A stretch of 64,000 bases of DNA from Nitrososphaeria archaeon. GTDB taxonomy: Archaea > Thermoproteota > Nitrososphaeria > Geothermarchaeales > JDFR-13. The notes below the pieces were generated by a model. It had not been told where the DNA came from, made no database searches, and saw nothing but the letters and a program-made list of their open reading frames with translations. The stretch spans positions 992,001 to 1,056,000 of the forward strand of contig JALWXN010000004.1 of assembly GCA_027078545.1 (NCBI GenBank), read 5' to 3'. Shown piece by piece: positions 1,006 through 25,398 of this stretch (position 1 is its first letter; the number at the start of each line of letters is the position of its first letter). Made by a program: the position numbers and the translations under genes.

Positions 1006-2386
1006 GCCCTGGCTAAAGGAGGCCCTAAAGAGGACACTATACCCAGACTCAGTAGCGGTTATAGGGGCCAGTAGGAGCCCCCGGAAGATAGGTTTCCAGG
1101 TGGTGTACAACCTCATCAAGGACGGCTTCAGGGGGAGGATATACCCGGTAAACCCCAATGCAGAGGAGATTATGGGGCTCAAGGCATACCCAAGCATAAC
1201 ATCCATCCCAGACGAGGTCGACGTGGCGGTAATAGCAATACCCGCTGAGAAGGTTAGGAGGGCTCTGAAGGGTAGTATAGAGAAGGGGGTCTCAGGAGTC
1301 GTAGTAATAACCTCTGGCTTCGCAGAAGTGGGTAGGGCCGAGGAGGAGAGGGAGCTCGTCAGGATGGCTGACGAGGCGGGGATAGCCCTCCTAGGACCCA
1401 ACGTCGTCGGCATACTCAACACCGACCACAATATGAACCTAAGCTTCTGCCCAAGCCTCCCCTACAGGGGGAGGATAACAATGGTCACTCAGAGCGGGGC
1501 CCTAGCAATAGGACTGGTCGGGTGGACATGGGCCAACAGGATAGGCCTCTCAAAGATGGTGAGCATAGGCAACATGGCCCAGATAGGCTTCGAGGAGATG
1601 CTGGAGTACCTAGAGGATGACGAAGACACAGAGACGATCCTCCTATACATGGAGAGCCTCAAGGATGGGAGGAGGTTCGTCGAGATAGCTAGGGAGGTCT
1701 CGAAGAAGAAGCCTATAGTGGCGATAAAGTCGGGTAGGAGCCAGCGGGGAGCCAAGGCTGCGATGAGCCACACAGGCAGCCTCGCCGGGGATGTTAAGCT
1801 ATACGATGTGGCATTCAGGGCAAGCGGGGTGATACCTGCATATGGCCTGGAGGACGGGTTCGACAAGGCTTTGGCGCTGCACCTACAGCCACCTATGAGG
1901 GGGCCCAACCTCGTAGTCGTAACCAACGGTGGCGGGGCTGGTGTACTGGCGTCGGACTTCGCCGAGGAGTATGGACTACCACTTAGGGACATGCCCCAGG
2001 ACCTGGAGAAGGAGGTTAGGAGGGCAATCTCACCCTTCGGAAGCCCGAAGAACCCTATAGACCTGACGGGCAACGCCTATAAGGAGGACTATATAGAGGT
2101 GCTTGACAAGGTCCTATCCCACCCCTGGGTGGACGGCGTCGTCGCGATATATGTACATGCAGCGATAACCGACCCCTACGAGATAGCGGATGGGATAGTC
2201 TCAATTGTTAGGAGGCACCCCGGTAAGCCAGTGATAATGTCCATGATAGGCGGTAGGGAGGTCTCGATAGCCAACACCTGGCTACGCGACAACGGGATAC
2301 CCGTATATCCAAGCCCTAGGAGGGCTGTAGCAGCTGCATCAGCCCTCTACCGCTATGGAGAGTTCCTAGAGAGGGTAGGCATGTGA
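998..2386 (+). CDS. acdA: Acyl-CoA synthetase (ADP-forming) alpha subunit
   Basis: SVAVIGAS CoA-binding fold, LLGPN, QSGA, phospho-His SHTGSLAG, TNGGG, NPIDLTG; overlaps the beta subunit gene. Confidence 0.93.
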   Translation: MSRPWLKEALKRTLYPDSVAVIGASRSPRKIGFQVVYNLIKDGFRGRIYPVNPNAEEIMGLKAYPSITSIPDEVDVAVIAIPAEKVRRALKGSIEKGVSGVVVITSGFAEVGRAEEERELVRMADEAGIALLGPNVVGILNTDHNMNLSFCPSLPYRGRITMVTQSGALAIGLVGWTWANRIGLSKMVSIGNMAQIGFEEMLEYLEDDEDTETILLYMESLKDGRRFVEIAREVSKKKPIVAIKSGRSQRGAKAAMSHTGSLAGDVKLYDVAFRASGVIPAYGLEDGFDKALALHLQPPMRGPNLVVVTNGGGAGVLASDFAEEYGLPLRDMPQDLEKEVRRAISPFGSPKNPIDLTGNAYKEDYIEVLDKVLSHPWVDGVVAIYVHAAITDPYEIADGIVSIVRRHPGKPVIMSMIGGREVSIANTWLRDNGIPVYPSPRRAVAAASALYRYGEFLERVGM

Positions 2387-2967
2387 AGACCTGGCTCCTC
2401 GAGAGGGCTAGACACCTGGAGAAGCTCGGAAAAGCCCTTGAGAAGGGGCTAGTTGATGAGGGTGTGATCCCCATACTAGAGGCCGTAAACAGGTGTAGCA
2501 GCTACGTCACTAAGAGCAGCTGCTACGGCAGGATACATATTACACAGGAGGAGAGCCTGATAAAGAAGGGACGGGGGAAGACCCTGTTAAAGATACATGG
2601 GCCAATAAGCCTCGACAAGGTGGAGGAGGCGCTGGAGAAGGCCCGTGGCGGCGTAGTGTGGATGAACGTAGAGGGGACCATACTACACATCGCCGCGGAG
2701 GACCTAGGAAAGGCCGTGGAGCTCCTAGGCATAGCCATCGAGGCCGGATATAGATACTCAAGCATATACAGCATAGGGGGCCGTGGAGTGACTGTGGAGA
2801 TACTCCTAGCCCCAAAGTATAGCATACCACTCAGGGCATGGGGAGAAGATATACTGGGGAAGGAGGAGATCCAGGAGGCGCTTAGATACGCGGAGAGACT
2901 CTTCGGAGAGGCTGAGAAGGCTAGACACAGGTTTTTAACCATACTAGGGGAATTGGGGTGTGAATAG
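2383..2967 (+). CDS. taw3: tRNA wyosine methyltransferase Taw3/TYW3 family
   Basis: GLVDEGVIPILEAVN..YVTKSSCYGRI, K-x-H, ILHI, AGYRYS motifs. Confidence 0.8.
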   Translation: MKTWLLERARHLEKLGKALEKGLVDEGVIPILEAVNRCSSYVTKSSCYGRIHITQEESLIKKGRGKTLLKIHGPISLDKVEEALEKARGGVVWMNVEGTILHIAAEDLGKAVELLGIAIEAGYRYSSIYSIGGRGVTVEILLAPKYSIPLRAWGEDILGKEEIQEALRYAERLFGEAEKARHRFLTILGELGCE

Positions 2968-2969
2968 CG

Positions 2970-4055
2970 ATGATACGCCTAGCCGAGCCATACATCAGCG
3001 ATGAGATTAAGGAGAAGATACTTGAGGTGATAGACTCTAAGCAGTATGTCGATGGCCGTTACACTAGGGAGTTCGAGGAGAGATTTGCAGGTTACATAGG
3101 CGTGAAACACGCAGTAGCTGTCTCCAGCGGGACATCAGCACTCTTCCTCATACTAAGGGCCCTAGGAATAGGTAGGGGGGACAAGGTAGCTGTACCCTCA
3201 TTCACATTCATAGCAACCGTCTCGCAGGCCGTCGAGCTGGGGGCGGAGCCAGTATTCATCGATGTAGACCCCGAGACCATGACCCTCGACCCAGCCGACC
3301 TCGAGAAGAAATTAGACTCCAGCGTCAAGGCGGTGATACCTGTACACCTATTCGGACACCCAGCGGATCTAGACCCGATTATAGAGGTCGCCGAGAAGCA
3401 TGGGGCCCACCTAATAGAGGACGCTGCACAGGCACATGGAGCAAGGTATAGGGGTAGACGAGTAGGGGGGATAGGCCACGTGGGATACTTCAGCCTATAC
3501 CCCTCCAAGAACATGGGTGTATATGGCGAGGGGGGAGTAATAACCACGAATGACGATGAGCTGGCTGAGCGGATAAGGAGCCTCAAGAACCACGGGATAA
3601 GGAATGGCGAGTTCGTGATGTTCGGATACAACATGAAGTTCAACGAGATAGGGGCGGTGGTGGCTCTCGAGCAGCTCAGGCTCCTTGACAGCTGGAATGA
3701 GCGGCGTAGGGAGAACGCGTCGATCTATACAGAGGCCTTTGGAGACTTAGAGCTCGAGACACCGATCGAGAAGGAATGGGCATACCACGTCTACAACCTA
3801 TACACCCTGAAGACCAGTGCCAGGGATGGGATTAGAGAGGCCCTCAGTAAGAGGGGCGTGGCTACAGGGATATACTACGACCGGCCTGTACACACACTCA
3901 ATATTGTGAGGGAGAGGTTTGGATACACGAAACTACCCATCACCGAAGAGCTTGCCAAGAGGGTGATAAGCCTACCCGTCCACCCAATGCTTACAAGGGA
4001 CGACCTCGAAAGAGTTATAGACGGTGTTAGAGAGGCTCTCCAGACTCCTCCCTAG
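2970..4055 (+). CDS. DegT/DnrJ/EryC1/StrS family nucleotide-sugar aminotransferase
   Basis: SSGTSAL, IPVHLFG, IEDAAQAHG, FSLYPSKNMG PLP lysine, GEGG. Confidence 0.92.
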   Translation: MIRLAEPYISDEIKEKILEVIDSKQYVDGRYTREFEERFAGYIGVKHAVAVSSGTSALFLILRALGIGRGDKVAVPSFTFIATVSQAVELGAEPVFIDVDPETMTLDPADLEKKLDSSVKAVIPVHLFGHPADLDPIIEVAEKHGAHLIEDAAQAHGARYRGRRVGGIGHVGYFSLYPSKNMGVYGEGGVITTNDDELAERIRSLKNHGIRNGEFVMFGYNMKFNEIGAVVALEQLRLLDSWNERRRENASIYTEAFGDLELETPIEKEWAYHVYNLYTLKTSARDGIREALSKRGVATGIYYDRPVHTLNIVRERFGYTKLPITEELAKRVISLPVHPMLTRDDLERVIDGVREALQTPP

Positions 4056-5208
4056 ACGCCTCAGCACTCCTAACCTCTTCACCAGCAGGGACGGGCCCAG
4101 TCTCGACAAGCTCCCTAACCATATCGACCTCATGGTGGACACCGTTCACCATGAACACTAGGAGACCATCATTACTGGCAACCTCACGTAACATGTCCTC
4201 AGGCTCCAGGTCATAGAACTCTACAGCCTTACCACCCAGGACCTCCTTCACCTTCCTATAATACCTACCAGCGAGGAAGACCTTCTCCACACGGGTATCC
4301 CTAAAGATATCCTCGAAGAAGGGGATGAAGAACCTGGTCCTATCCGCCCTGTCACCCCTGAAATACGCGAAGATGTAGATCGGGCCGGAGTAGTTCCTCT
4401 TCAAGTAGTTGTAGACCATCCTCGTAGATGATGGGTCGTTCACCTTGGCGATATCTATATACTTGAAGCCCCAGGGACTATACCTCGGCCTAAGCCTAGC
4501 CATGATATGATGCACAATATGGTTGAACTCAGCCATTGAGAGGGGCTCCATACCCATTATGTCTAGGAGCTCCTGCACAATGTATACCCTCTCGATACCC
4601 AGGATATCCAGCTGCCCCTCAGGGACATCCACAACCCTAAGCTCAACCCCATACTTTATCGCATACTCCTCAAGGATGGGGTACGTCGCCTCAAAATTCT
4701 CCCTAATCGTCTCAGCGTAGATGACATACTCGAGGTCGTAGAACTGGCTCGCAAAGGTGTGAGCCATCTCCTCCAGAGTCTCACCAAGCTCGGCATGCTC
4801 AAGCCTGATGTTTGGGATGATCTCTATATTAGGCCTAAAGATCCTATGTATAACACCGTTTGTATACTTCCTGATACTCTGGTTCTCAAACACATAGATA
4901 TCCGCGGGGAACTCTGCAATAATGCCCCCGTTCTCCCAGTCCAGCATAGGGTTCTTAGGCTTATCCCCCCTATCGATAACCCACTCCTCACCATCATATC
5001 TAAAGCGGGGCCTATCACCAGTCACCTTACCAAGAACCTTTACCCCCGACTCCCCCAGCCTATTATAAAGTATGTCATAGATATCGAGGACCAGGCCCGT
5101 CTTTCCCCTGCTACCAGATACGAGTACCCTATAGATCGACTTTCTAAGGTTCTCCCTATATCTGGCCAGCATCCCGTTGGCCAATGGCCGTACCCTGTAA
5201 ATATTCAA
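4027..5208 (-). CDS. capB: CapB/PgsB-like poly-gamma-glutamate synthase (Mur-ligase family)
   Basis: P-loop VSGSRGKT, GKVTG, NIRLEH, VNDPSST, RGDRADRT; GGAGGT SD before the TTG; downstream of a capC-like gene. Confidence 0.75.
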   Translation of the reverse strand: MNIYRVRPLANGMLARYRENLRKSIYRVLVSGSRGKTGLVLDIYDILYNRLGESGVKVLGKVTGDRPRFRYDGEEWVIDRGDKPKNPMLDWENGGIIAEFPADIYVFENQSIRKYTNGVIHRIFRPNIEIIPNIRLEHAELGETLEEMAHTFASQFYDLEYVIYAETIRENFEATYPILEEYAIKYGVELRVVDVPEGQLDILGIERVYIVQELLDIMGMEPLSMAEFNHIVHHIMARLRPRYSPWGFKYIDIAKVNDPSSTRMVYNYLKRNYSGPIYIFAYFRGDRADRTRFFIPFFEDIFRDTRVEKVFLAGRYYRKVKEVLGGKAVEFYDLEPEDMLREVASNDGLLVFMVNGVHHEVDMVRELVETGPVPAGEEVRSAEASREESGEPL

Positions 5209-5262
5209 TTCTGAGTTACCTCCCTGGCTCTACGGGGGCGTTAGGATAGTAATGTCTTACAA

Positions 5263-5275
5263 TAAATATATAAAT
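5263..5275 (-). promoter_or_regulatory. TATA-like element upstream of capB
   Basis: ATTTATATATTTA on the minus strand about 55 nt upstream of the capB TTG, followed by an SD. Confidence 0.4.
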
Positions 5276-5295
5276 CAGTCGCTATTAGGAGCGAG

Positions 5296-5769
5296 TTATA
5301 TGGTTATGACCCCAGCCATGAGGTATATTATGAAGGCTATCAACATGACTGTTAGAAACTCGGCCATCCAGACCAAGACAGGCCTAAGGTAGTCACCATT
5401 CGAGACGATCTCCTTATGCATGTTATAGGCTATGATCCCTCCAATAAGTGAGGTGAAGGCCGAGGATATCTGTGTACCCACCCAGTTATAGGTGCTTAGG
5501 AAGACGATCATGCTGATAAATGCAGCCACATAGAATGCACGCCTACCGTATATCAAGTACCTGTCATGGACAATCTCGAGTGCAACCACCGCCAGGGATA
5601 TGGCGAGGCCTGTGGAGAGGATTATCGCGGGCTCCTTAACCACATAGATTACGAGGAAGGGGGTGGCTATCACACCTCCTACAGCGGTCCTATACTTGAT
5701 ATAGTAGAGATAACCAACGACAAAGCCTACCATGAGGACTAGTATGTCTAGGGCCAAGACATGTTCCAT
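5296..5769 (-). CDS. capC: CapC/PgsC-like poly-gamma-glutamate biosynthesis membrane protein
   Basis: About 150 aa, hydrophobic, GGVIATPFLVIY, LIYGRR, GGIIAYN motifs; adjacent to capB. Confidence 0.75.
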   Translation of the reverse strand: MEHVLALDILVLMVGFVVGYLYYIKYRTAVGGVIATPFLVIYVVKEPAIILSTGLAISLAVVALEIVHDRYLIYGRRAFYVAAFISMIVFLSTYNWVGTQISSAFTSLIGGIIAYNMHKEIVSNGDYLRPVLVWMAEFLTVMLIAFIIYLMAGVITI

Positions 5770-5857
5770 GGTTACACCTTCCTCCCCACCTCAATATAGC
5801 CCCATAAATATAAGGATGAGCCTCATATATCACACACCCAGATACACCTAGACAGGG

Positions 5858-6403
5858 ATGAGGATAATAGTATATGCAGACCCCATAGAGATAGGTAGGG
5901 AAGACGTGAGGGAGGCCCTCTCAAACGCGGGTATAGATGCTGGACACGTCATCCTAAGGAGGGACTACGACCATATAGAGATAGACATCGAGACCGATGC
6001 AGAGGTCCAGGAGGTCCTAGAAGCTATTCGGAGCATCGGGGTCAGGCCCCACAGGGTATCCTTGATAGAGGAGGGGGAGAACGACCTGGATATAGACCCT
6101 ATCCAGACCTTCCTAGAATACTTTACAAGGGGATGGTTCTGGGAGATCCATGAGAAGCTCGAGAAGGTATGGAGGAGGAGTGGCGACCCCTTCCTAAGAG
6201 GCCTAATACTTGCTACGATACCCTACGTCAAGCAGCAGATGGGGCAGTACGACAGGATATGGCAGGCGATCGAGAGGCTTGAGAGATACGCAACGGAGAC
6301 CGGCGATGAACGGCTAACCTGTCTAGCAAAGGAGATAAAGAAGGGTTATAGAGACTGTAGGCTTACCCGTATAGACCCGGGGAGATGCCTCTCTAGACCT
6401 TGA
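5858..6403 (+). CDS. DUF309-domain protein with an N-terminal ferredoxin/ACT-like extension
   Basis: FWEIHEKLEKVW...RGLI matches the DUF309 HExLExxW signature. Confidence 0.65.
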   Translation: MRIIVYADPIEIGREDVREALSNAGIDAGHVILRRDYDHIEIDIETDAEVQEVLEAIRSIGVRPHRVSLIEEGENDLDIDPIQTFLEYFTRGWFWEIHEKLEKVWRRSGDPFLRGLILATIPYVKQQMGQYDRIWQAIERLERYATETGDERLTCLAKEIKKGYRDCRLTRIDPGRCLSRP

Positions 6404-6566
6404 CCTCCGCCTGTGGAGCCTTGAACCCAATCTTTGCATGTGTCCCGTCGCAGAAAGGCTTCTTGTTACTCCCGCCACACCTACATAGGGCGGCCACGAC
6501 CTTACCCTCCTTCATGACCAGGTATGGCCCGTTCTCCTTAGCCAGGATGACTATGTCCTCCACCAT
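6393..6566 (-). CDS. CDGSH iron-sulfur (2Fe-2S, mitoNEET-like) small protein, 57 aa; missing from the ORF track
   Basis: MVEDIVILAKENGPYLVMKEGKVVAALCRCGGSNKKPFCDGTHAKIGFKAPQAEVKV; GGTGA SD upstream. Confidence 0.92.
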   Translation of the reverse strand: MVEDIVILAKENGPYLVMKEGKVVAALCRCGGSNKKPFCDGTHAKIGFKAPQAEVKV

Positions 6567-6613
6567 ATAACCATCACCAAATAGTTAGTAGCACTACAAA
6601 CTATTTATTGTCC

Positions 6614-6973
6614 TCAGGACATCTGCTTTATCCACTCACCCACGATGTCATAGCCATATAGCTCCTCCAGCATCTTCCTACCCTCCTCAGTGATCTTCGC
6701 AGGTGTCCATGGAGGCTCCATGACCAGCTCGACATTCACCTCCCAGTCCTCGCCAAGAGCCTCCTTGATAGCAGCCTCCGCATCGTCGATTATGGCGTAT
6801 GCCACTGGGCAGCCTATCGAGGTTATCGTCATATCCACATGTACCTTCTTGTTCTCCACGTCTATATCGATCTTGTATACCAGGCCGAGGTCATACACGT
6901 TCACAGGGATCTCGGGGTCATGGACCTTCCTCAGCGCCTCTATAATCTTCTTCTCAACCTCAGCCTTATCCAT
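6614..6973 (-). CDS. sufT: DUF59/SufT (MIP18) Fe-S cluster assembly protein
   Basis: DPEIPVNVYDLGLVY, MTITSIGCP, PPWTP; start reassigned to MDKAEV. Confidence 0.88.
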   Translation of the reverse strand: MDKAEVEKKIIEALRKVHDPEIPVNVYDLGLVYKIDIDVENKKVHVDMTITSIGCPVAYAIIDDAEAAIKEALGEDWEVNVELVMEPPWTPAKITEEGRKMLEELYGYDIVGEWIKQMS

Positions 6974-7057
6974 CCTCTCCCCCACCCTATTCCATAACCC
7001 TGTTATATCATATAAACCGGGCAAGCTATTTTTGACAGGTAATATAATATATGTACT

Positions 7058-8203
7058 ATGCCTGGGGATGAGGAGATCCTACCCATCAAGGGGGACGAGA
7101 AGCTGCTAACCGACCCAGTCCTCATACACAACGGGAGGATATACAAGAGGGTCGACTTCGGCTGGGAGAAGGATATATCCGCGTATCTCCAGAGGAATAA
7201 GAAGATCCTCAGCAGGATCTTCGGCGAGGGGAGCATATTCATACCGACGGAGAGGATCATAGGGAAGAGTAGCAAGATAATGACTGATGCCCTCCTCCTA
7301 AAGACTGGTAGGAACAGGATGGAGATATGGGTGGTAGAGGTAGACATGCTGAGGCACGGCGTGAATAGCCACATCAAGGACCAGGTATTGAAGATGAACG
7401 AGGCACTGAAGCAGGTCGACCCGGCATCACTAGCCTTCAAGATCTACGAGGAGCTTAGACGTAACAGATACATGTTCCAGAAGATCAGGGAGGAGGTCCT
7501 GGGCCAGAGGAGGGATAAGGAGGATCTACTCCCCAAGATCAAGGAGGCGGTGGAGAAGATGTCCCAGAACATTATACTGATCATCGACAAGGTCAACACC
7601 GACCTCCTAAGGGCTGTAGAGGAGATTAGGAAGAGTAGGAGGAACGTCGAGCTGATCATTATACAGCGCTTCGTCGACATAGACAAGGTGGATGGAGACG
7701 GGTCAGAAATATTCCTAATCACCCCACTGAGGGGGAGTGAGGCGGAGAAGACCAGGATAGATACTAAGAGCCTAGTTAAGAGGAGGATGGATAAGTATTG
7801 GAACACGACCCTCAAGGAGGTCCGTAGACTAGGCTGCGAAACCAAGAGGAAGGAGGTGAAGAAGACCAGGTACTACATAGCAGTTGTAGAGGATAGGCCA
7901 ATACTCGTGATGAGGAAGATGAGGAAGAAGGGTGGAGTGGAGGTATGGATAGACACCGAGCTCGTCGACGACGAGACTATTAGGGAGCTCTCAATACCCA
8001 GGAGGATAGTCAAGACCGGTAGGAGCAAGCTATTCAAGAAGCTCCTCGAGGACAAGACGTGGAGGGAGGCCTACAACTTCACCAGTAAGGAGGTACCCAT
8101 ACCCCGCATGCTAGAGCTGCTCAAGAGGGCTATAGAGAGGGTTAGGAAGACTGGAGACGCCGAAGCTCCTCAAGAACCTCATCAACATGTCCAGCAACCC
8201 TGA
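7058..8203 (+). CDS. Hypothetical protein with an N-terminal PD-(D/E)XK-like nuclease domain
   Basis: E..(EKDI) ...IFG..SIFI...TDALLL...WVVEVD...H...HI..Q pattern; basic C-terminal domain. Confidence 0.5.
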   Translation: MPGDEEILPIKGDEKLLTDPVLIHNGRIYKRVDFGWEKDISAYLQRNKKILSRIFGEGSIFIPTERIIGKSSKIMTDALLLKTGRNRMEIWVVEVDMLRHGVNSHIKDQVLKMNEALKQVDPASLAFKIYEELRRNRYMFQKIREEVLGQRRDKEDLLPKIKEAVEKMSQNIILIIDKVNTDLLRAVEEIRKSRRNVELIIIQRFVDIDKVDGDGSEIFLITPLRGSEAEKTRIDTKSLVKRRMDKYWNTTLKEVRRLGCETKRKEVKKTRYYIAVVEDRPILVMRKMRKKGGVEVWIDTELVDDETIRELSIPRRIVKTGRSKLFKKLLEDKTWREAYNFTSKEVPIPRMLELLKRAIERVRKTGDAEAPQEPHQHVQQP

Positions 8204-8618
8204 CGTTCCTCCATATCCTCCTGATCCTACCCTCAGGGTCTATCAGGAAGGTCGACCTTATCACGCCCAGATACTCCCTACCAAACCTCTTCTTGATCCC
8301 CAGGACGCCATACATCTCCAGGACCCTCCTCTCCACATCGCTGAGCAGTACGACCTTCAACCCATGCTTCTCCCTAAACCTCCTATGACTCTCGACAGGG
8401 TCTGGACTCACACCTATCACCACGGCACCGAGGCTGAGGAAGTCGTTTAGCCTACTGGTGAAGTCCACAGCCTCACGGGTACAGCCAGAGGTATTGTCCT
8501 TGGGGTAGAAGTATAGGACTACCCACCTACCCCTGAAGTCTCTTAGACAGACCTCCCTACCCTCATCCGATGGTAGGCAGAAGTCTGGGGCCTCCATACC
8601 CTCAACGACAGTCGCCAC
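8142..8618 (-). CDS. bcp: Peroxiredoxin Bcp/PrxQ
   Basis: VLYFYPKDNTSGCTREA, GVSPD, RSTFLID; likely GTG start at 8618. Confidence 0.93.
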   Translation of the reverse strand: MATVVEGMEAPDFCLPSDEGREVCLRDFRGRWVVLYFYPKDNTSGCTREAVDFTSRLNDFLSLGAVVIGVSPDPVESHRRFREKHGLKVVLLSDVERRVLEMYGVLGIKKRFGREYLGVIRSTFLIDPEGRIRRIWRNVRVAGHVDEVLEELRRLQSS

Positions 8619-8667
8619 TATACCCACCACATAGCTATATGGATGGGGCTGGATAGAAAAATCGGGG

Positions 8668-9951
8668 CTATCCATAGACGGTTATAGTCTCAACCATCTC
8701 CACACCCTTCATCTCCCTCCCCAGGAAGACGCCTAGGACGCCTAGGAGGTGGACCAGGGCGAAGAGTGTGAAGACGACGTACCAGTCCATACCTAGGAAC
8801 GGGACCACCGTAGCGCCTAGTATACCACCGATCCTACCGAAGAACCCAGCCCAGCTGGAGCCCAGGCCCCTTATATGGGTTGGGTACTGCTCAGGGGTAT
8901 AGGTGTATAGGGCTGCCCATGCACCCAGGTCGAAGAAGCTCAGTATTATCCCATATAGGTAAAGCTCGAATACGGTCCTGCTCGAGGCGAAGAGGAATGA
9001 GGAAAGGGCAGTCGCGGCTAGGTATATGCCTAGTACACGCCTCCTACCCACCCTGTCCACCAGGAGTACGGCGCTGAAGTAGCCGGGCAGCTGGGCAAGT
9101 GTGATGACCAGTAGGTAGGTGAACCTATTACCAGCTATATACTCCCCTATCTCGGGGGATATACTGCCCAGCATCGAGGGGAGCCATATGAAGATTCCGT
9201 AGTAGCCCATCGTTATGGAGAACCACGTTATCCATAGGCCTATCGACTCCCTTCGATACCTGGATAGGAGGAGCCTCACAGACTCGAGCCAGGAGAGCCT
9301 CCTCTCCTCAACCTCGGGGAGGGGCACCCCGTATAGGCTGGCCAGCCTAGAGGCCTCCTCCCTACGGCCAAGCATCTTTAGGAAGCGGAGTGACTCGGGG
9401 AGCCTGGCTATCGAGCCTAGGAATACGAGTAGTGAGAGGCCACCAGCTAGGAACATGTAGGGCCTCCACTCACCACTGGCGAAGACTGTGAAGTATGAGA
9501 GTATCAGGGCGGATAGCCAGCCCACCGCCCAGAAGCTCTCGACCAGGCTTATGTTACGCCCCCTATGCTCCGGGCTACTATACTCGGCCACGAGTGATGC
9601 TATTATGGGGAGCGCCCCACCAACACCGAAGCCTGTGGCCACCCTGAAGAGTATCAAGCTCTCCGCATTGGGTGCTAGGCCGGCTAGGAGGGTAGCTAGG
9701 GAGTGTATAGCCGCGTATATCCCTATGATCCTACGCCTCCCAACCCTGTCCGCTAGGAAGCCCGAGGTGAAGGCTCCTATAAGCATCCCTATGTTTGCAC
9801 CGCCACCTATGAGGCTCTTAATCAGTGGATCCTCGATGGATAGGCTGGTGATTATTGGGCGGAGGCTGAAGCTTATCACACCGACGTTCTGGGACGATAT
9901 GAGCCATAGCAGCCCCGCCAAGAATACTATCCTAAGCTCCCCCCTCATCAC
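8668..9951 (-). CDS. MFS transporter (NiaP/SV2-like subgroup)
   Basis: GFLADRVGRR motif A, EYSSPEHRG, PES, YTPEQYPT; about 12 TM. Confidence 0.88.
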   Translation of the reverse strand: MMRGELRIVFLAGLLWLISSQNVGVISFSLRPIITSLSIEDPLIKSLIGGGANIGMLIGAFTSGFLADRVGRRRIIGIYAAIHSLATLLAGLAPNAESLILFRVATGFGVGGALPIIASLVAEYSSPEHRGRNISLVESFWAVGWLSALILSYFTVFASGEWRPYMFLAGGLSLLVFLGSIARLPESLRFLKMLGRREEASRLASLYGVPLPEVEERRLSWLESVRLLLSRYRRESIGLWITWFSITMGYYGIFIWLPSMLGSISPEIGEYIAGNRFTYLLVITLAQLPGYFSAVLLVDRVGRRRVLGIYLAATALSSFLFASSRTVFELYLYGIILSFFDLGAWAALYTYTPEQYPTHIRGLGSSWAGFFGRIGGILGATVVPFLGMDWYVVFTLFALVHLLGVLGVFLGREMKGVEMVETITVYG

Positions 9952-10033
9952 CAGGTGAGCAATATACTATTCATAGCCTTAAAACCAAGGCTACACATAA
10001 ACACTACTCCAAACCCAGTATCACAGATGAGGG

Positions 10034-12187
10034 TCAGAGCCTCCGCATAGAGTTGATGAGAAGGCTCGTCACGCTGAGAACCATGAATATCATCGCCCAG
10101 TAGGGCTGTATAAGGCCTAGAGCAGCTAGGGGGATCCCAAGCCCATTATACATGAAGGCGACGAACAGGTTGGTCCTAGTCCTGCCATACATCCTCCTCG
10201 AGAGCCGGAAGAGCTCGACAAGCCTATCAAACCGGTCGCTGACTATCAATACATCACTATTCACAGCGGTTATGTCAGACCCTACACCGAACGCCACACC
10301 CACATCAGCCAGGGTCACCGACGGCGCATCGTTAAACCCATCACCCACCATGACCACCCTATACCCCCGTGCCTGTAGACCCCTGACTACCTCTGCCTTC
10401 TCACCAGGCCTTAGCCCTGCCATATACCAGTCCAGGTCAAGCCCACCAACCATCCTACGGGTATTCTCCTCAGAGTCCCCAGTTATGAGAGCTACTCCAG
10501 ACACGTATCCCCTCAGCTCGGCAATGGCTCTGGCAACATCATCCCTTAGGACGTCTGATAGGTGGATATAGCCGGCGAGGGAGCCATCGACGGCGGCATA
10601 AACCGTCCTAAAACCCTCCTCAGGAGGGTGGTCCACATCGATACCCATAGCCATCATCAACTCCCTACTCCCCACAGCTATGCGATGGCCATCCACCACC
10701 CCAGCAATACCCATCCCCGGTATGACCTCCACGTCACTTACCTCTCCACACTCTATCTCGCCCAGCCTGTCCAGGGCATAGCCGTAGATAGCCTCGGCAA
10801 CAGGGTGTCGGGAATAGCTCTCTAGACAGCCCACCAGCCTAAGCAGCTCCTCCTCATCAAAACCGTTGAGGGCCCCAAGCCCCGCCACCATCGGCCTACC
10901 AAGCGTCATTGTACCCGTCTTATCCAGGAGTAGGTATGGCCTCCCACTGAGGATCTCTATGGAGTCGCCATTCCTAATAAGGATCCCCCTCTCAGCAGCT
11001 ACTCCGGAGCCCCTAATGATAGCGAGGGGTATAGCCATGCCCAATGCACAGGGATAACCCATGACTAGGACCGTCATAAAGACGTATAGGGGCCTAACCC
11101 AGTCCAATCCCCGGCCCAGGATCAATGGAGCGATATCCCAGAGGACCAGCCCGGCCACCGCTGTGAAGAGGACGAAGGATATATACCTCTTCAATACACG
11201 GTCTAGGAGGCTCAGGATAGGTGGCTTAAGAGCCCTCGCCTCCCTGATATGCATGACTAGACGGTGGAGGAAGGAGTCTCTATACCTCCTCGACACCCTT
11301 ATCTCCACGGGGTCAGAGAGGTTGATGGAGCCCGAGACCACCTCATCCCCCCTATACTTATCCACAGGAAGCGGCTCACCAGTAACTATGCTCTCATCGA
11401 CCGATGCATAGCTACTTAGCAGTATCCCATCAAGGGGTATAGACTCACCCCTATCCACTATAACCACTTCACCCGGCTCCACATCCTCAACATCGACATA
11501 TCTTACTGCTCCACCCCTCCTGACCCTAACTACTCGGGGACGATACCTCAGAAGCCTCCCAACAGCCTCTTCAGACTTCTTCCTAACATATGATGCCGAG
11601 TATCCACCCAGCAAGTGATAAGTAGTCACGAATGAAGCGACACCGAAGAAGTCTCCCGGTGGGTAGAGGCCAGTCAATAGACCAATAACACCACCTAGGA
11701 GCCCAGACAAACCTGTTAGAAACATGAGTACATGCTGATTAAGGATTCCCCTGCGTAGTGAGTTGATGGATATAGCTATATACTCCCTACCCAGGAATAG
11801 GAAGTTAGCCCCTGCTATCAGGCCCATAGCCAATGCTGCCTCTCTACCCAGTGTGCCGAGCCACATACCCAGCATAAACAGTCCTGCGACTAGTGAGAGC
11901 ATAGTTGATAGGAGTAGACGTCTCCTAAGAATCCTGTATACCTTCTCATAATCAGGGGATTCATCAACATCTCTAAGCCTATATCCCAGGCCCTCTAGCA
12001 AAGCCTCTATCTCGGATTCATCTACCCTATCAGGGTCATACCTAATGTAGATCTCCTCATGGGCGATACTGACATTATACTCCCACACACCCTCTATACG
12101 GGAGAGGGCATCCTCAATATTCGAGACGCAGAAGGAGCAGTGCAGCCCCTCGATCCTCCTGTGTAGAACCCTCTCCCTACTATTCAC
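10034..12187 (-). CDS. copA: P1B-type heavy-metal (Cu+) exporting ATPase
   Basis: N-terminal HCSFC HMA domain, TGEP, YPCALG, DKTGT, HP, GDGFND, YN and MxxS TM ligands. Confidence 0.9.
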   Translation of the reverse strand: MNSRERVLHRRIEGLHCSFCVSNIEDALSRIEGVWEYNVSIAHEEIYIRYDPDRVDESEIEALLEGLGYRLRDVDESPDYEKVYRILRRRLLLSTMLSLVAGLFMLGMWLGTLGREAALAMGLIAGANFLFLGREYIAISINSLRRGILNQHVLMFLTGLSGLLGGVIGLLTGLYPPGDFFGVASFVTTYHLLGGYSASYVRKKSEEAVGRLLRYRPRVVRVRRGGAVRYVDVEDVEPGEVVIVDRGESIPLDGILLSSYASVDESIVTGEPLPVDKYRGDEVVSGSINLSDPVEIRVSRRYRDSFLHRLVMHIREARALKPPILSLLDRVLKRYISFVLFTAVAGLVLWDIAPLILGRGLDWVRPLYVFMTVLVMGYPCALGMAIPLAIIRGSGVAAERGILIRNGDSIEILSGRPYLLLDKTGTMTLGRPMVAGLGALNGFDEEELLRLVGCLESYSRHPVAEAIYGYALDRLGEIECGEVSDVEVIPGMGIAGVVDGHRIAVGSRELMMAMGIDVDHPPEEGFRTVYAAVDGSLAGYIHLSDVLRDDVARAIAELRGYVSGVALITGDSEENTRRMVGGLDLDWYMAGLRPGEKAEVVRGLQARGYRVVMVGDGFNDAPSVTLADVGVAFGVGSDITAVNSDVLIVSDRFDRLVELFRLSRRMYGRTRTNLFVAFMYNGLGIPLAALGLIQPYWAMIFMVLSVTSLLINSMRRL

Positions 12188-21426: not shown

Positions 21427-24400
21427 ATGAAGACTAGACACATACACGGGATATACCTATCCGGATGCGTGGTCTGCGGAGGCCCCATAGGAGACGACAG
21501 GCTAATGATGGGCCTCCCATGTAGGGGATGCATACCCGATAAAGACCTTGAGAGGCTCGGCCCCAGACCAAGCCTCCTAGAGATAGACAGGTATATCAGG
21601 GATAGGGGGGTCGAGCCCAGCCAGACATTCAGGCTAATGGTTGAGGTGGAGAGGAAAACCAAGGAGTTTAGAGATCTCTTCCAGAGGGCCGTGGGTAACA
21701 GGCCCTGGTCCGCCCAGCTAACCTGGGCGAGGCGAGTATTCAAGAAGGAGAGCTTCTCGATAGTCGCTCCCACCGGTATCGGGAAGACAGTCTTCGGGAT
21801 AGTCATGAGCATATATAAGACCTACATAGAGCTGGAGAGGGGGAGGGACAGGGACAAGGCATACATAGTCCTCCCCACGACAGCCCTGGTCAAACAGGTC
21901 TACCAGAAGACCCTCCAGTTCCTCGATAGGCTCGGTCTGGACCCCAGCTACGTAGTGGCATACCACAGCGACCTCAGGACCAGGGAGAGGAGGGAGGTTG
22001 TGGAGAAGATAGTGAGTGGAGACTTCAAGATACTGATAACGACCAACCAGTTCCTATCCACTAGGTTCGACCTACTCAGCGACAAGAAGTTCGAGTTCAT
22101 ATTCGTAGACGACGTAGACGCGGTGCTTAGGAGCAGCAAGAACATAGAGAACATCATAATCCTACTGATGCGCCGCGGCAGATCAAAGGCGGAGACCCTG
22201 AGGAAGGACCTCAAGAACATCCTTGAGGCCCTGATAGAGATTAGGAGGGCTAACCGTGAGGGAGACCCCGAGAAGATAGCCGAGTATAGGCGTAGGGTGG
22301 AGGAGATAAAGGAGCGGATGAGGGCTATAGGGACACTAGTCATCTCAAGCGCCACCGGGAGGCCCCGGGGGATAAAGGTCAAGCTATTTAAGGAGCTCCT
22401 AGGCTTCGAGGTGGGCCTGAGGAGCGAGACGATAAGGAACATAGTGGACACCTACCTCATCGTGGATGACGAGGAGGAGGCGCTGGAGAAGCTTGTATAC
22501 TACACAAAGACCCTGGGTAGTGGCGGCCTGATATACGTCCCCGTGGACAAGGGGATAGAGTATGCAAAGAGGCTTGCAGAACACCTGGCAAACAGGGGTA
22601 TAAAGGCCGACTACATGGCTAGTGGTAGGCTAACACCCCTGGAGAAGTTCCTCACAGGCGAGCTAGACGTCTTGATAGGGGTCTCGATCTACTACGGCGT
22701 CATGGTCAGGGGGCTCGACTACCCAGAGCATATTAGATACGCCATATTCCTAGGAGTCCCACGCTTCAGGTTCAGCGCGAGGCTTGCTGAGCCCAACGTC
22801 AGCCAGATAGCGAAGACGCTGAACATCCTGAAGGACATCGTACCCCAGGAGGAGATAGGCTACTGGCTCCGACTGGCAAACAAGATCGTGAAGACCGGGA
22901 CAATATACTACATCAGGAAGCTAAACGAGGTTCTACAGGGGGCTAGGGAGCCGGAGACAAAGACTGAGAGGGAGCTCCTAAAGGCTCTACAGTACATCAG
23001 GGAGAGGCTTGCCCAGGAGGAGGTCAGGGAGGCCCTAAAGAAGCATCCAGACGTGGTGATCGAGGAGGAGGGTGGCGAGCTATACCTCGTCATACCAGAT
23101 GTATATACCTATATACAGGCTAGTGGGAGGACGAGTAGGCTATACGCAGGAGGAGTCACCAAGGGCCTATCACTAGTCATAGAGACGGAGGAGAAGCTCC
23201 TAAAGATACTGATCAGGAGGATGGAGATAGTCTTCGAGGAGGCCAGGTGGAGAAGTATAGACGAGGTAGATCTGGATAAGCTCCTCAGGGAGATAGACGA
23301 GGATAGGCAGAGGGTCGTCATGGTGAGGACGGGCCAGCTAAAGGCGGAGTTCAGAGACCCGATCAGACCCATACTGATAATAGTGGAGAGCCCTAACAAG
23401 GCCCGGACCATAGCCAGGTTCTTCGGAAGGCCGAGCACCAGGAGGAGGAATGGACACCTAGTATACGAGGTGACCACGGGAGACATGTTGATATCCGTCA
23501 CCGCCACCGGAGGCCACATATACGACATCGTTGAGAGGCTGGATGAGGAGACCCTAAATAGGATAACCAGCCTACTCGGGGAGGAGCTCGAGAACGTCTA
23601 TGGCGTCCTTAGAGGCAGGGGGAGATACATCCCCGTCTATGGGAGGATAAAGATATGTAGGAATGGCCATCAATACATAGTCCCCGAGAAATACGTGATA
23701 GACGGGGAGACATACGAGGTCTGCCCCAAATGCCTCAGGAGCCTTAGGAGGAAGAGCCATAGGAAGAACCACCTAGAGAAGCTCAGGCTCGAGATCCCAC
23801 TCCTAGCAAGCGACGTGAGGGACAAGGGAGAGGCGGTAGACTTCATCAGGGGGATAGCCTCCGAGGTCGAGACGGTACTCGTGGGGACAGACCCCGACAC
23901 AGAGGGTGAGAAGATAGGCTGGGACATAGCCTCACTCGTAAACCCCTTCGCCAGGGAGATGCATAGGATAGAGTTCCACGAGGTGACCAGGAGGGCGATA
24001 TCAAACGCAATACGGGAGAAGAGGGAGCTCAACGAGAAGCTGGTGGAGGCACAGCTCGTCAGGAGGATAGAGGACCGCTGGATAGGCTTCGAACTATCCA
24101 GGAGGATCTACGGCGAGATATCTAGGGAGAGGGATAGCTGGTTAGTCCAGACCCTACAGGGCGGGTGGAGCGCCGGCCGTGTACAGACACCGGTACTGGG
24201 ATGGATAGTGAACAGGACAGAGGAGGCGGACCGCAACAAGAAGCAAGGTATTAGGCTGAGCATACCCAGCCTCGACATAGTGGTCTGGCTAACCTACGAC
24301 GAGCTCAGGAGGCTGGGTATAGACCCGGGCGAGATCCCACGTAGGACAGAGGATGGTGGGGACGGGGAGAGGGACGTAGACACAGAGATACTCCTCAGGC

Positions 24401-25398
24401 TAGAGATTGGAGATACATATACAGCGGAGGCCAAGCCACCACCCCCACTAACCACCGACTCCCTCCTAAGAGAGGCCTCGAGGCTATACGGGATGGACAG
24501 TAGAAAGACGATGAGGATAGCCCAGGAGCTCTTCGAGTCTGGACTAATAACCTACCACAGGACAGACAGTACAAGGATATCCGAGGAGGGCATGGGGATA
24601 GCTAGGAAATACCTAGAGACACGCTACGGAGAGGAGGGGCTGAAGGACTACTACCCGAGGAGGTGGGGCGAGGGAGGTGCCCACGAGGCGATACGCCCGA
24701 CAAGGCCCCTAGACGTAGACACCCTGATAGACATGGTGAGCCAGGGAGACCTGATGATACCTATAAACCTGACCCGGGACCACCTAAGGATCTACGGCCT
24801 AATCTTCGACCGCTTCATACTCAGCCAGCTAGCACCTGCCAGGTTGACTAAGAGGGTCGTAAAACTCCTATACCGGGATAGGGAGATCTACAGCACAGAG
24901 ATAACTACTGGGGCCGATACACCGGTGAAGGAGAGGTTCTACAGCATAGCCCACCCGATCAAGAAGATCGAGCTGAGGGAGGGCTACGTCAAGGCACTGG
25001 CAAGGCATGGGACTGTCTACCTAGTCAGGTTCTACACCGAGGGAGAGGTCATCGAGGAGATGAAGAGGAAGGGTATAGGGAGGCCCAGCACATACGCCAG
25101 CATAATACAGACGCTTAAGGAGAGGAGGTATGTAAAGGCTGTTCTTAGGATCTACCTCCTAGCCACCCTAAAGGGTAAGAAGGCCTACCGCATACTAAGC
25201 ACGAAGTATGGAGACCTAGTCTCTGAGGAGAGGACCAGGTTCGTCCAGATGCTTATGGACATGATCGAGAGGGGTGAGAAGGACTATATATCCGTCCTGG
25301 ACGAGCTATACGAGGAGATAGAGTATCTCAGGCATCGGGACTCGACGGAGGCCCAGTCCGAGGAGGTAAGGACTGCGGGCCCAAGGATGAGGCCCTAG
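21427..25398 (+). CDS. rgy: Reverse gyrase
   Basis: N-terminal Zn finger, APTGIGKT, DDVD, QASGRTSR helicase motifs fused to a type IA topoisomerase (ESPNKA, DPDTEGE, SAGRVQ, ITYHRTD, GRPSTY). Confidence 0.97.
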   Translation: MKTRHIHGIYLSGCVVCGGPIGDDRLMMGLPCRGCIPDKDLERLGPRPSLLEIDRYIRDRGVEPSQTFRLMVEVERKTKEFRDLFQRAVGNRPWSAQLTWARRVFKKESFSIVAPTGIGKTVFGIVMSIYKTYIELERGRDRDKAYIVLPTTALVKQVYQKTLQFLDRLGLDPSYVVAYHSDLRTRERREVVEKIVSGDFKILITTNQFLSTRFDLLSDKKFEFIFVDDVDAVLRSSKNIENIIILLMRRGRSKAETLRKDLKNILEALIEIRRANREGDPEKIAEYRRRVEEIKERMRAIGTLVISSATGRPRGIKVKLFKELLGFEVGLRSETIRNIVDTYLIVDDEEEALEKLVYYTKTLGSGGLIYVPVDKGIEYAKRLAEHLANRGIKADYMASGRLTPLEKFLTGELDVLIGVSIYYGVMVRGLDYPEHIRYAIFLGVPRFRFSARLAEPNVSQIAKTLNILKDIVPQEEIGYWLRLANKIVKTGTIYYIRKLNEVLQGAREPETKTERELLKALQYIRERLAQEEVREALKKHPDVVIEEEGGELYLVIPDVYTYIQASGRTSRLYAGGVTKGLSLVIETEEKLLKILIRRMEIVFEEARWRSIDEVDLDKLLREIDEDRQRVVMVRTGQLKAEFRDPIRPILIIVESPNKARTIARFFGRPSTRRRNGHLVYEVTTGDMLISVTATGGHIYDIVERLDEETLNRITSLLGEELENVYGVLRGRGRYIPVYGRIKICRNGHQYIVPEKYVIDGETYEVCPKCLRSLRRKSHRKNHLEKLRLEIPLLASDVRDKGEAVDFIRGIASEVETVLVGTDPDTEGEKIGWDIASLVNPFAREMHRIEFHEVTRRAISNAIREKRELNEKLVEAQLVRRIEDRWIGFELSRRIYGEISRERDSWLVQTLQGGWSAGRVQTPVLGWIVNRTEEADRNKKQGIRLSIPSLDIVVWLTYDELRRLGIDPGEIPRRTEDGGDGERDVDTEILLRLEIGDTYTAEAKPPPPLTTDSLLREASRLYGMDSRKTMRIAQELFESGLITYHRTDSTRISEEGMGIARKYLETRYGEEGLKDYYPRRWGEGGAHEAIRPTRPLDVDTLIDMVSQGDLMIPINLTRDHLRIYGLIFDRFILSQLAPARLTKRVVKLLYRDREIYSTEITTGADTPVKERFYSIAHPIKKIELREGYVKALARHGTVYLVRFYTEGEVIEEMKRKGIGRPSTYASIIQTLKERRYVKAVLRIYLLATLKGKKAYRILSTKYGDLVSEERTRFVQMLMDMIERGEKDYISVLDELYEEIEYLRHRDSTEAQSEEVRTAGPRMRP

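Follow-up and report, generated by a model that had tools for sequence, protein, structure and literature searches.

The capC-capB gene pair, related to the genes with which Bacillus produces poly-gamma-glutamate, a slime polymer, has been known in an archaeon since 2006, when it was published for Haloquadratum walsbyi (PMC1544339). A BLAST survey of 2015 found PgsB but not PgsC in archaea (PMC4497714), and a survey of 2025 reported CapB in Halobacteria, a few Methanosarcinales and Korarchaeota (PMC11915815). Natrialba aegyptiaca secretes L-poly-gamma-glutamate (L-PGA) of more than 1000 kDa (PMC3815933), and B. subtilis pgsBC without pgsA yielded 26 g/L PGA, 95% of it in the L form (PMC6029982). 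We found no characterised archaeal poly-gamma-glutamate synthase in the literature, though Natrialba and Natronococcus make L-PGA. Here we analysed a stretch of 64,000 nucleotides (referred to as the window) from a Nitrososphaeria archaeon (assembly GCA_027078545.1, contig JALWXN010000004.1, positions 992,001 to 1,056,000). On its minus strand the window carries a gene for a CapC/PgsC-like integral membrane protein (5296..5769, 157 aa, ATG start), first of the pair, and then a gene for a predicted soluble PgsB/CapB-like ATP-dependent amide ligase of the Mur-ligase fold and ENQ type (4027..5208, 393 aa, TTG start). With a probability of roughly 0.6, the pair constitutes a minimal, PgsA-independent, ATP-driven poly-gamma-glutamate-type synthase of an archaeal subfamily marked by the ENQ motif, with an all-L product.

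The host is a Candidatus Geothermarchaeota metagenome-assembled genome (MAG) of 1.24 Mb, 92% complete, whose closest public record is 96% identical. An earlier note, made from the letters of this DNA, had called the organism reverse-gyrase-bearing, and the gene is indeed present in the window at about 21442-25323. The same note had over-rated the novelty of the pair, since archaeal capC-capB had already been published (PMC1544339, PMC11915815). As judged from sequence, the pair is a new, thermophilic member of the known archaeal capC-capB type, a type whose function is itself putative. It leaves unchanged what is known of the existence of the family in archaea, and the conserved C partner seen here fills the PgsC gap of the 2015 survey.

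The two genes are co-oriented, and all the motifs quoted from them earlier were recovered in the translations, namely SGSRGK, GKVTG, PNIRLEH (NxRxxH), NDPSST, RGDRADR and FENQ in the ligase, and LIYGRR and GGIIAYN in the membrane protein. Among homologues the majority of these motifs vary little or not at all. The best family for the ligase was PgsB (TIGR04012; 47.4 bits, E = 1.1e-12, best stretch at profile positions 20-158); Mur_ligase_M and murC scored 16.7 and 13.6 bits, respectively, and no folC match was listed at E <= 1. A search of 1.84 billion representatives with a profile built from the ligase and its 12 nearest relatives gave 54 clusters below 1e-30, followed by a long series of proteins of about 380 aa at 90-115 bits. 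Scanned singly, several of the latter exceeded the TIGR04012 cut-off and others fell just under it. Alignment of the ligase with 33 canonical PgsB proteins, all 33 matching TIGR04012, gave an hhalign probability of 100% (E = 2.7e-44, 342 columns, template positions 21-387 of 397), and on this alignment the ligase is homologous to canonical PgsB end to end.

Columns conserved to at least 90% in canonical PgsB were kept in the ligase in 23 of 28 cases, with D142 to E counted as a change. The five changed columns are E22, which lies in the anchor-adjacent region that the ligase lacks, the conservative D142 to E within NIRx(D/E)H, M to Q, which turns ECM into ENQ, T to P, and F to A. The P-loop GxRGK(S/T), KxTG, the Mg-binding Glu, NxRx(D/E)H, NDxxS and RxDRxxR are all conserved, and the catalytic residues are invariant across homologues; canonical E92 was placed by hhalign. 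No hydrophobic segment was found anywhere in the ligase (maximum Kyte-Doolittle 19-residue mean of 1.1), which bears out the earlier remark that it lacks an obvious N-terminal transmembrane (TM) anchor.

The AlphaFold2 model of the ligase has a Mur-ligase fold (predicted local distance difference test score, pLDDT, of 87) with a disordered acidic C-terminal tail at residues 376-393. Its top Foldseek matches were folylpolyglutamate synthase (FPGS), MurC/F, CphA1 and pMurE, at 10-16% identity and E of 1e-9 to 1e-11. No PgsB-like chain was found in the copy of the PDB searched, either by sequence profile or by Foldseek, the sequence search giving Mur-ligase P-loop matches only. Given that FPGS was the best structural match, that the ligase is the only Mur-ligase-like gene detected in the host genome, and that it has diverged so far from PgsB (ENQ, no anchor) that its specificity may have changed, the ligase could act on some other substrate. 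It would then polymerise a different amino acid or, like FPGS, add glutamates onto a small molecule or cofactor, with the CapC-like protein merely a membrane tether. We consider this improbable, as the profile search placed canonical PgsB proteins next, with FolC and the Mur ligases far behind, the two C-terminal blocks specific to PgsB (NDxxS and RxDRxxR) are retained, and FPGS has no obligate small membrane partner of the kind seen in PgsBC. Assignment of the ligase to FolC/FPGS, MurC-F, CphA or MurT was likewise rejected, in view of the low murC score, the PgsB-type relatives and the generic nature of the fold likeness.

The membrane protein matched the Pfam CapC profile (PF14102) over positions 1-113 of 119 with 47.1 bits (E = 3.8e-12), and with 47.9 bits in the genome-wide search. 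The check on a CapC profile proposed earlier thus came out above the gathering threshold of 27 bits. Alignment of archaeal CapC with PgsC of Bacillus thuringiensis by hhalign gave a probability of 93.6% (E = 2e-7), with the YGRR and PG(L/I)IA(Y)N blocks in register; canonical PgsC sequences were taken from annotated plasmids. The protein was modelled by AlphaFold2 as six helices (pLDDT 89). A homologue search with the CapC alignment retrieved archaeal-type CapC only and did not reach canonical PgsC, and a fold search of the model among 48,161 chains gave generic helical matches only, the best having a Z of 7.7 over 59 residues, below the quoted noise level for helical bundles and uninformative as to function. 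Going by the profile and alignment scores, the match of the pair to CapC and PgsB is more than chance.

By motif, architecture and gene order, the pair belongs to a coherent archaeal-type subfamily with ENQ in place of ECM, no N-terminal anchor, and C followed by B. Its members come from Halobacteria, Methanomicrobiales, Methanoperedens, one Aenigmarchaeota MAG, Nitrososphaerota and a few Thermoproteota. ENQ occurred in all Geothermarchaeota, methanogen and haloarchaeal rows of the alignment and in 56 of the 64 top-ranked relatives; among the next 90, ECM occurred in 56 and ENQ in 7, mostly fragments. The earlier remark that ENQ, as against the ECM of Bacillus, looks closer to the haloarchaeal type was therefore correct, ENQ being found in the haloarchaeal homologues and ECM in the canonical rows. 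An N-terminal hydrophobic anchor was absent in 63/64 archaeal-type relatives and present in 70/90 canonical proteins. The order C then B was found in 29 of 35 archaeal loci, and the bacterial records that were read had B then C. A 4-nt overlap of C and B is seen in other lineages, and PgsA/CapA was not found beside the module in any archaeal locus read.

In a maximum-likelihood tree of 92 proteins, which has no outgroup root, the canonical PgsB rows fell on one side of a branch with a Shimodaira-Hasegawa-like approximate likelihood ratio test (SH-aLRT) support of 95 and all other rows on the opposite side. The neighbours of the ligase, from inner to outer, were the other species of its genus, metagenomic representatives, a cluster with an Aenigmarchaeota-labelled member, and Methanoperedens together with Methanomicrobiales; haloarchaeal ligases formed a separate large clade. 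The phylogeny suggested earlier as a check thus placed the ligase in a group sister to canonical PgsB, but did not group it with haloarchaea within the archaeal type.

Some observations on the subfamily stand apart from this argument. It has no naming model; on a Halobaculum plasmid (L054, 2385-5149) RefSeq names the partner PgsC/CapC and the ligase only 'Mur ligase family protein'. In the Nitrososphaerota loci the small membrane protein upstream is very divergent, CapC being hinted at by hhalign only (probability 57%). In Methanobacteriaceae (L038:2709-4538 and L039:7262-9089) a very long-branched PgsB-like ligase follows a 210-aa protein that matches no Pfam family and has about 5-6 hydrophobic segments; this protein may be another type of partner.

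Both genes are under strong purifying selection. Compared with the 96%-identical relative, the ratio of non-synonymous to synonymous substitution rates (dN/dS) was 0.041 for the ligase gene and 0.055 for the CapC-like gene. Of the 4 other genomes in the genus, 3 carried the module; it was found in none of 9 from the remainder of the family, several of which are incomplete, and in 3 of a sample of 400 from across the phylum. Two of the latter three have C then B with a 4-nt overlap and no other neighbour in common, and the third match is a fragment. The overlap without common neighbours and the sporadic occurrence therefore indicate a self-contained, patchily distributed module. G+C contents of the two genes were 0.506 and 0.48 against a mean of 0.539, which is partly explained by the codon bias of membrane proteins; G+C at third codon positions (GC3) was within about 1 standard deviation of the window genes. 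Composition gave no clear sign of a recent horizontal transfer. This patchiness and the slightly low G+C could also be expected of a decaying, non-functional remnant of horizontal acquisition. Such a remnant is very improbable, however, with both frames intact, dN/dS of 0.04-0.06, invariant catalytic residues, ordinary GC3, and synteny kept across species whose ligases are 53% identical.

Several observations weigh against a poly-gamma-glutamate synthase. The scores of both proteins lie below the equivalog cut-offs, at 47.4 versus 222.7 bits for PgsB (TIGR04012), by far, and 20.8 versus 96.45 bits for PgsC (TIGR04011); because of the former, we treat the ligase as a PgsB-like subfamily member and not as an equivalog. 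The profile check on the ligase proposed earlier thus held for its nearest family, which is PgsB and not FolC, Mur or CphA, but not for the cut-off. The identity of the ligase to haloarchaeal proteins is only 28-32%, no biochemically tested archaeal member of the subfamily was found in the literature, and substrate specificity is not readable from sequence. A gene for the poly-gamma-glutamate hydrolase PghP (PF05908) was found neither in the locus nor in the 92%-complete genome. Two tandem genes of the gamma-glutamyltranspeptidase (GGT) family, the family of CapD, lie outside the window at G000:C4:746292-750006. They were rejected as CapD-like partners, being about 245 kb from the pair and equally present in relatives with and without the module, and for the latter reason they lend it no support.

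The absence of capA and of a racemase, claimed earlier for the window, extends to the 92%-complete genome (no match to PF09587 or PF01177), and a control search with PF09587 matched in 7 of 14 genomes. PgsE was also not found in the host genome. Because neither PgsA nor an Asp/Glu racemase was found in the genome, an all-L product would be expected. A mechanism can be proposed from what is known of Mur ligases and of PgsBCA. As the ligase has no anchor of its own, it would dock on the CapC-like protein at the membrane. With ATP, it would convert the gamma-carboxyl at the growing end into an activated acyl phosphate, as in Mur-ligase chemistry, and would add the next L-glutamate there. The complex would be kept at the membrane by the CapC-like protein, through or along which the polymer would pass outward. 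Glutamate as the substrate, the gamma linkage and export are all presumptive in this scheme. The polymer itself and its chirality are likewise putative, as is the thermoprotective role suggested earlier, and its physiological role could be, for example, that of a hydrated anionic surface layer, a metal binder or a biofilm matrix.

The product might instead be a gamma-glutamyl (or glutaminyl) chain kept on an envelope acceptor such as a glycan, a lipid or an S-layer component, resembling the glutaminylglycan wall of Natronococcus, and not a free capsule or slime. Haloarchaeal CapB has been proposed to function in glutaminylglycan synthesis (Lupo et al. 2025, PMC11915815), and Natronococcus has a short-chain, wall-bound L-PGA (PMC3815933). 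A gene of the DegT family of sugar aminotransferases, moreover, lies directly against the ligase gene, and this synteny holds for all three species in the genus. This gene is convergent, however, and not co-transcribed, it is not beside the module in other lineages, and no glycosyltransferase or other envelope gene was found within the surrounding 12 kb. An acceptor-bound chain is therefore unlikely in our view, and the synthase proposed above is preferred.

As to the layout of the locus, the TATA-like boxes were picked by eye, a sigma-70 promoter scan not being meaningful for an archaeon. A TATA-like box TTATATTTAT (5804..5813, minus strand) lies about 40 nt upstream of the ATG of the capC-like gene, as inferred from reading the sequence, and a GGAGG-like stretch precedes this ATG. 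The spacer between C and B is 87 nt long and on the minus strand (annotated part 5261..5294) contains a hairpin resembling a terminator (5294-5279) and, after it, a TATA-like stretch rich in A and T (5274-5261); the 53%-identical relative L008 likewise has a spacer that is AT-rich. A Shine-Dalgarno-like GGGAGGT (5218..5224, minus strand) lies 9 nt before the TTG of the ligase. Only 7 in-frame codons are available upstream of this TTG (open frame of 400 aa), and the alignment with the N-termini of homologues begins at about residue 4. The 3' ends of the convergent ligase and DegT-family genes overlap by 29 nt, and a DUF309 gene is divergent from the capC-like gene. The order TYW3, DegT aminotransferase, ligase, CapC, DUF309 (window 2383-6403) is largely kept across the species of the genus, with DegT missing at the site in one relative. 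DegT and DUF309 were rejected as parts of the module, their synteny being confined to the genus and both being absent beside the module elsewhere.

The haloarchaeal loci have additional features. In Natrialbaceae and other haloarchaea the module is followed or flanked by genes with the PF05908 poly-gamma-glutamate-hydrolase domain; one or two such genes, with 200-aa N-terminal regions lacking a Pfam match, stand beside the pair in L031 (9226-11769) and, as cluster 3, in L012, L022, L023, L029, L034 and L035. These hydrolase-domain neighbours in Natrialbaceae, together with the documented production of L-PGA by Natrialba (PMC3815933), speak in favour of a poly-gamma-glutamate-type synthase. In L014, L016, L017, L018, L019 and L033 (about 1860-10900 in each) we observed a cassette that combines a 388-aa CapC fusion and a 546-aa ligase with a histidine kinase of hybrid PAS/GAF type. 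It includes a response regulator in some of these loci and a DDE transposase of insertion sequence type in most. This cassette is identical or nearly so in Salarchaeum, Haloferax, Halohasta, Halopenitus, Haloarchaeobius and Halorutilales, once on a plasmid, and its near-identity across distant genera points to recent horizontal spread. Haloarchaeal CapC (L031:6630-7802, L014:6346-7512 and others) is fused to a multi-TM domain of about 240 aa with a weak match to Acyl_transf_3 (17.9 bits); this extra domain might take the place of PgsA or serve to modify the polymer. DUF1508 (YegP-like) domains, N-terminal or C-terminal, are found in many ligases of haloarchaea (P0036, P0042-P0054, L014:7509-9149).

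At two genes and about 550 residues, the module is about the smallest natural version of such a system and, coming from a thermophile, is a convenient candidate for biochemistry and structure of PgsB and PgsC without PgsA. For Geothermarchaeota, whose cell surface is poorly known, it also provides a candidate exopolymer. We further propose, tentatively and with somewhat less than even confidence, that the anchor-less, ENQ-type, C-then-B pair represents a distinct and ancient archaeal class of PgsA-independent polyamide synthases, whose product in this reverse-gyrase-bearing lineage would be poly-gamma-L-glutamate, or an anionic polyamide related to it, formed at high temperature. If so, a (hyper)thermophilic archaeon would for the first time be known to make such a polymer, and the pair would be a source of a minimal heat-stable PGA synthase.

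Compared with known systems, the ligase shares with FPGS and the Mur ligases the two-domain fold of ATP-dependent amide ligases, but is only 10-16% identical to them, scores near noise against their hidden Markov models (murC 13.6 bits) and, unlike them, has a membrane partner. Bacterial clusters lacking PgsA (e.g. the Fusobacterium nucleatum type) and engineered B. subtilis pgsBC agree with the archaeal pair in that PgsB and PgsC can suffice, with an L-rich product (PMC6029982); their ligases, however, are of the canonical ECM type with an anchor, and the natural clusters usually have a third gene. From Bacillus PgsBCA(E)/CapBCADE the archaeal genome differs in having no detected PgsA, PgsE or PghP and in its unlinked GGT-family genes. 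The ligase differs from Bacillus PgsB in lacking the anchor and in having ENQ for ECM, NIRLEH for NIRxDH and P for T before Asn; both proteins are far below the TIGR04012 and TIGR04011 cut-offs, and the gene order is C then B, in contrast to B then C in the bacterial records read. In common with Bacillus, the ligase is homologous over its whole length with like ATP-binding, Mg-binding and C-terminal motifs, the partner is a small multi-helix membrane protein with the YGRR and PG-IA-N blocks, and the genes are adjacent. The haloarchaeal capC-capB (Haloquadratum walsbyi, Bolhuis et al. 2006; Natrialba and relatives) belongs to another clade of the tree at 28-32% ligase identity. Its CapC of about 388 aa has the extra multi-TM domain and its ligases of 400-546 aa often have DUF1508, neither of which occurs here, and its loci often include genes resembling PGA hydrolases, or a histidine kinase with a response regulator, and the window pair has none of them. 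With the haloarchaeal pair, nevertheless, the present one shares the anchor-less ENQ ligase, the order C then B, and a function that is likewise putative.

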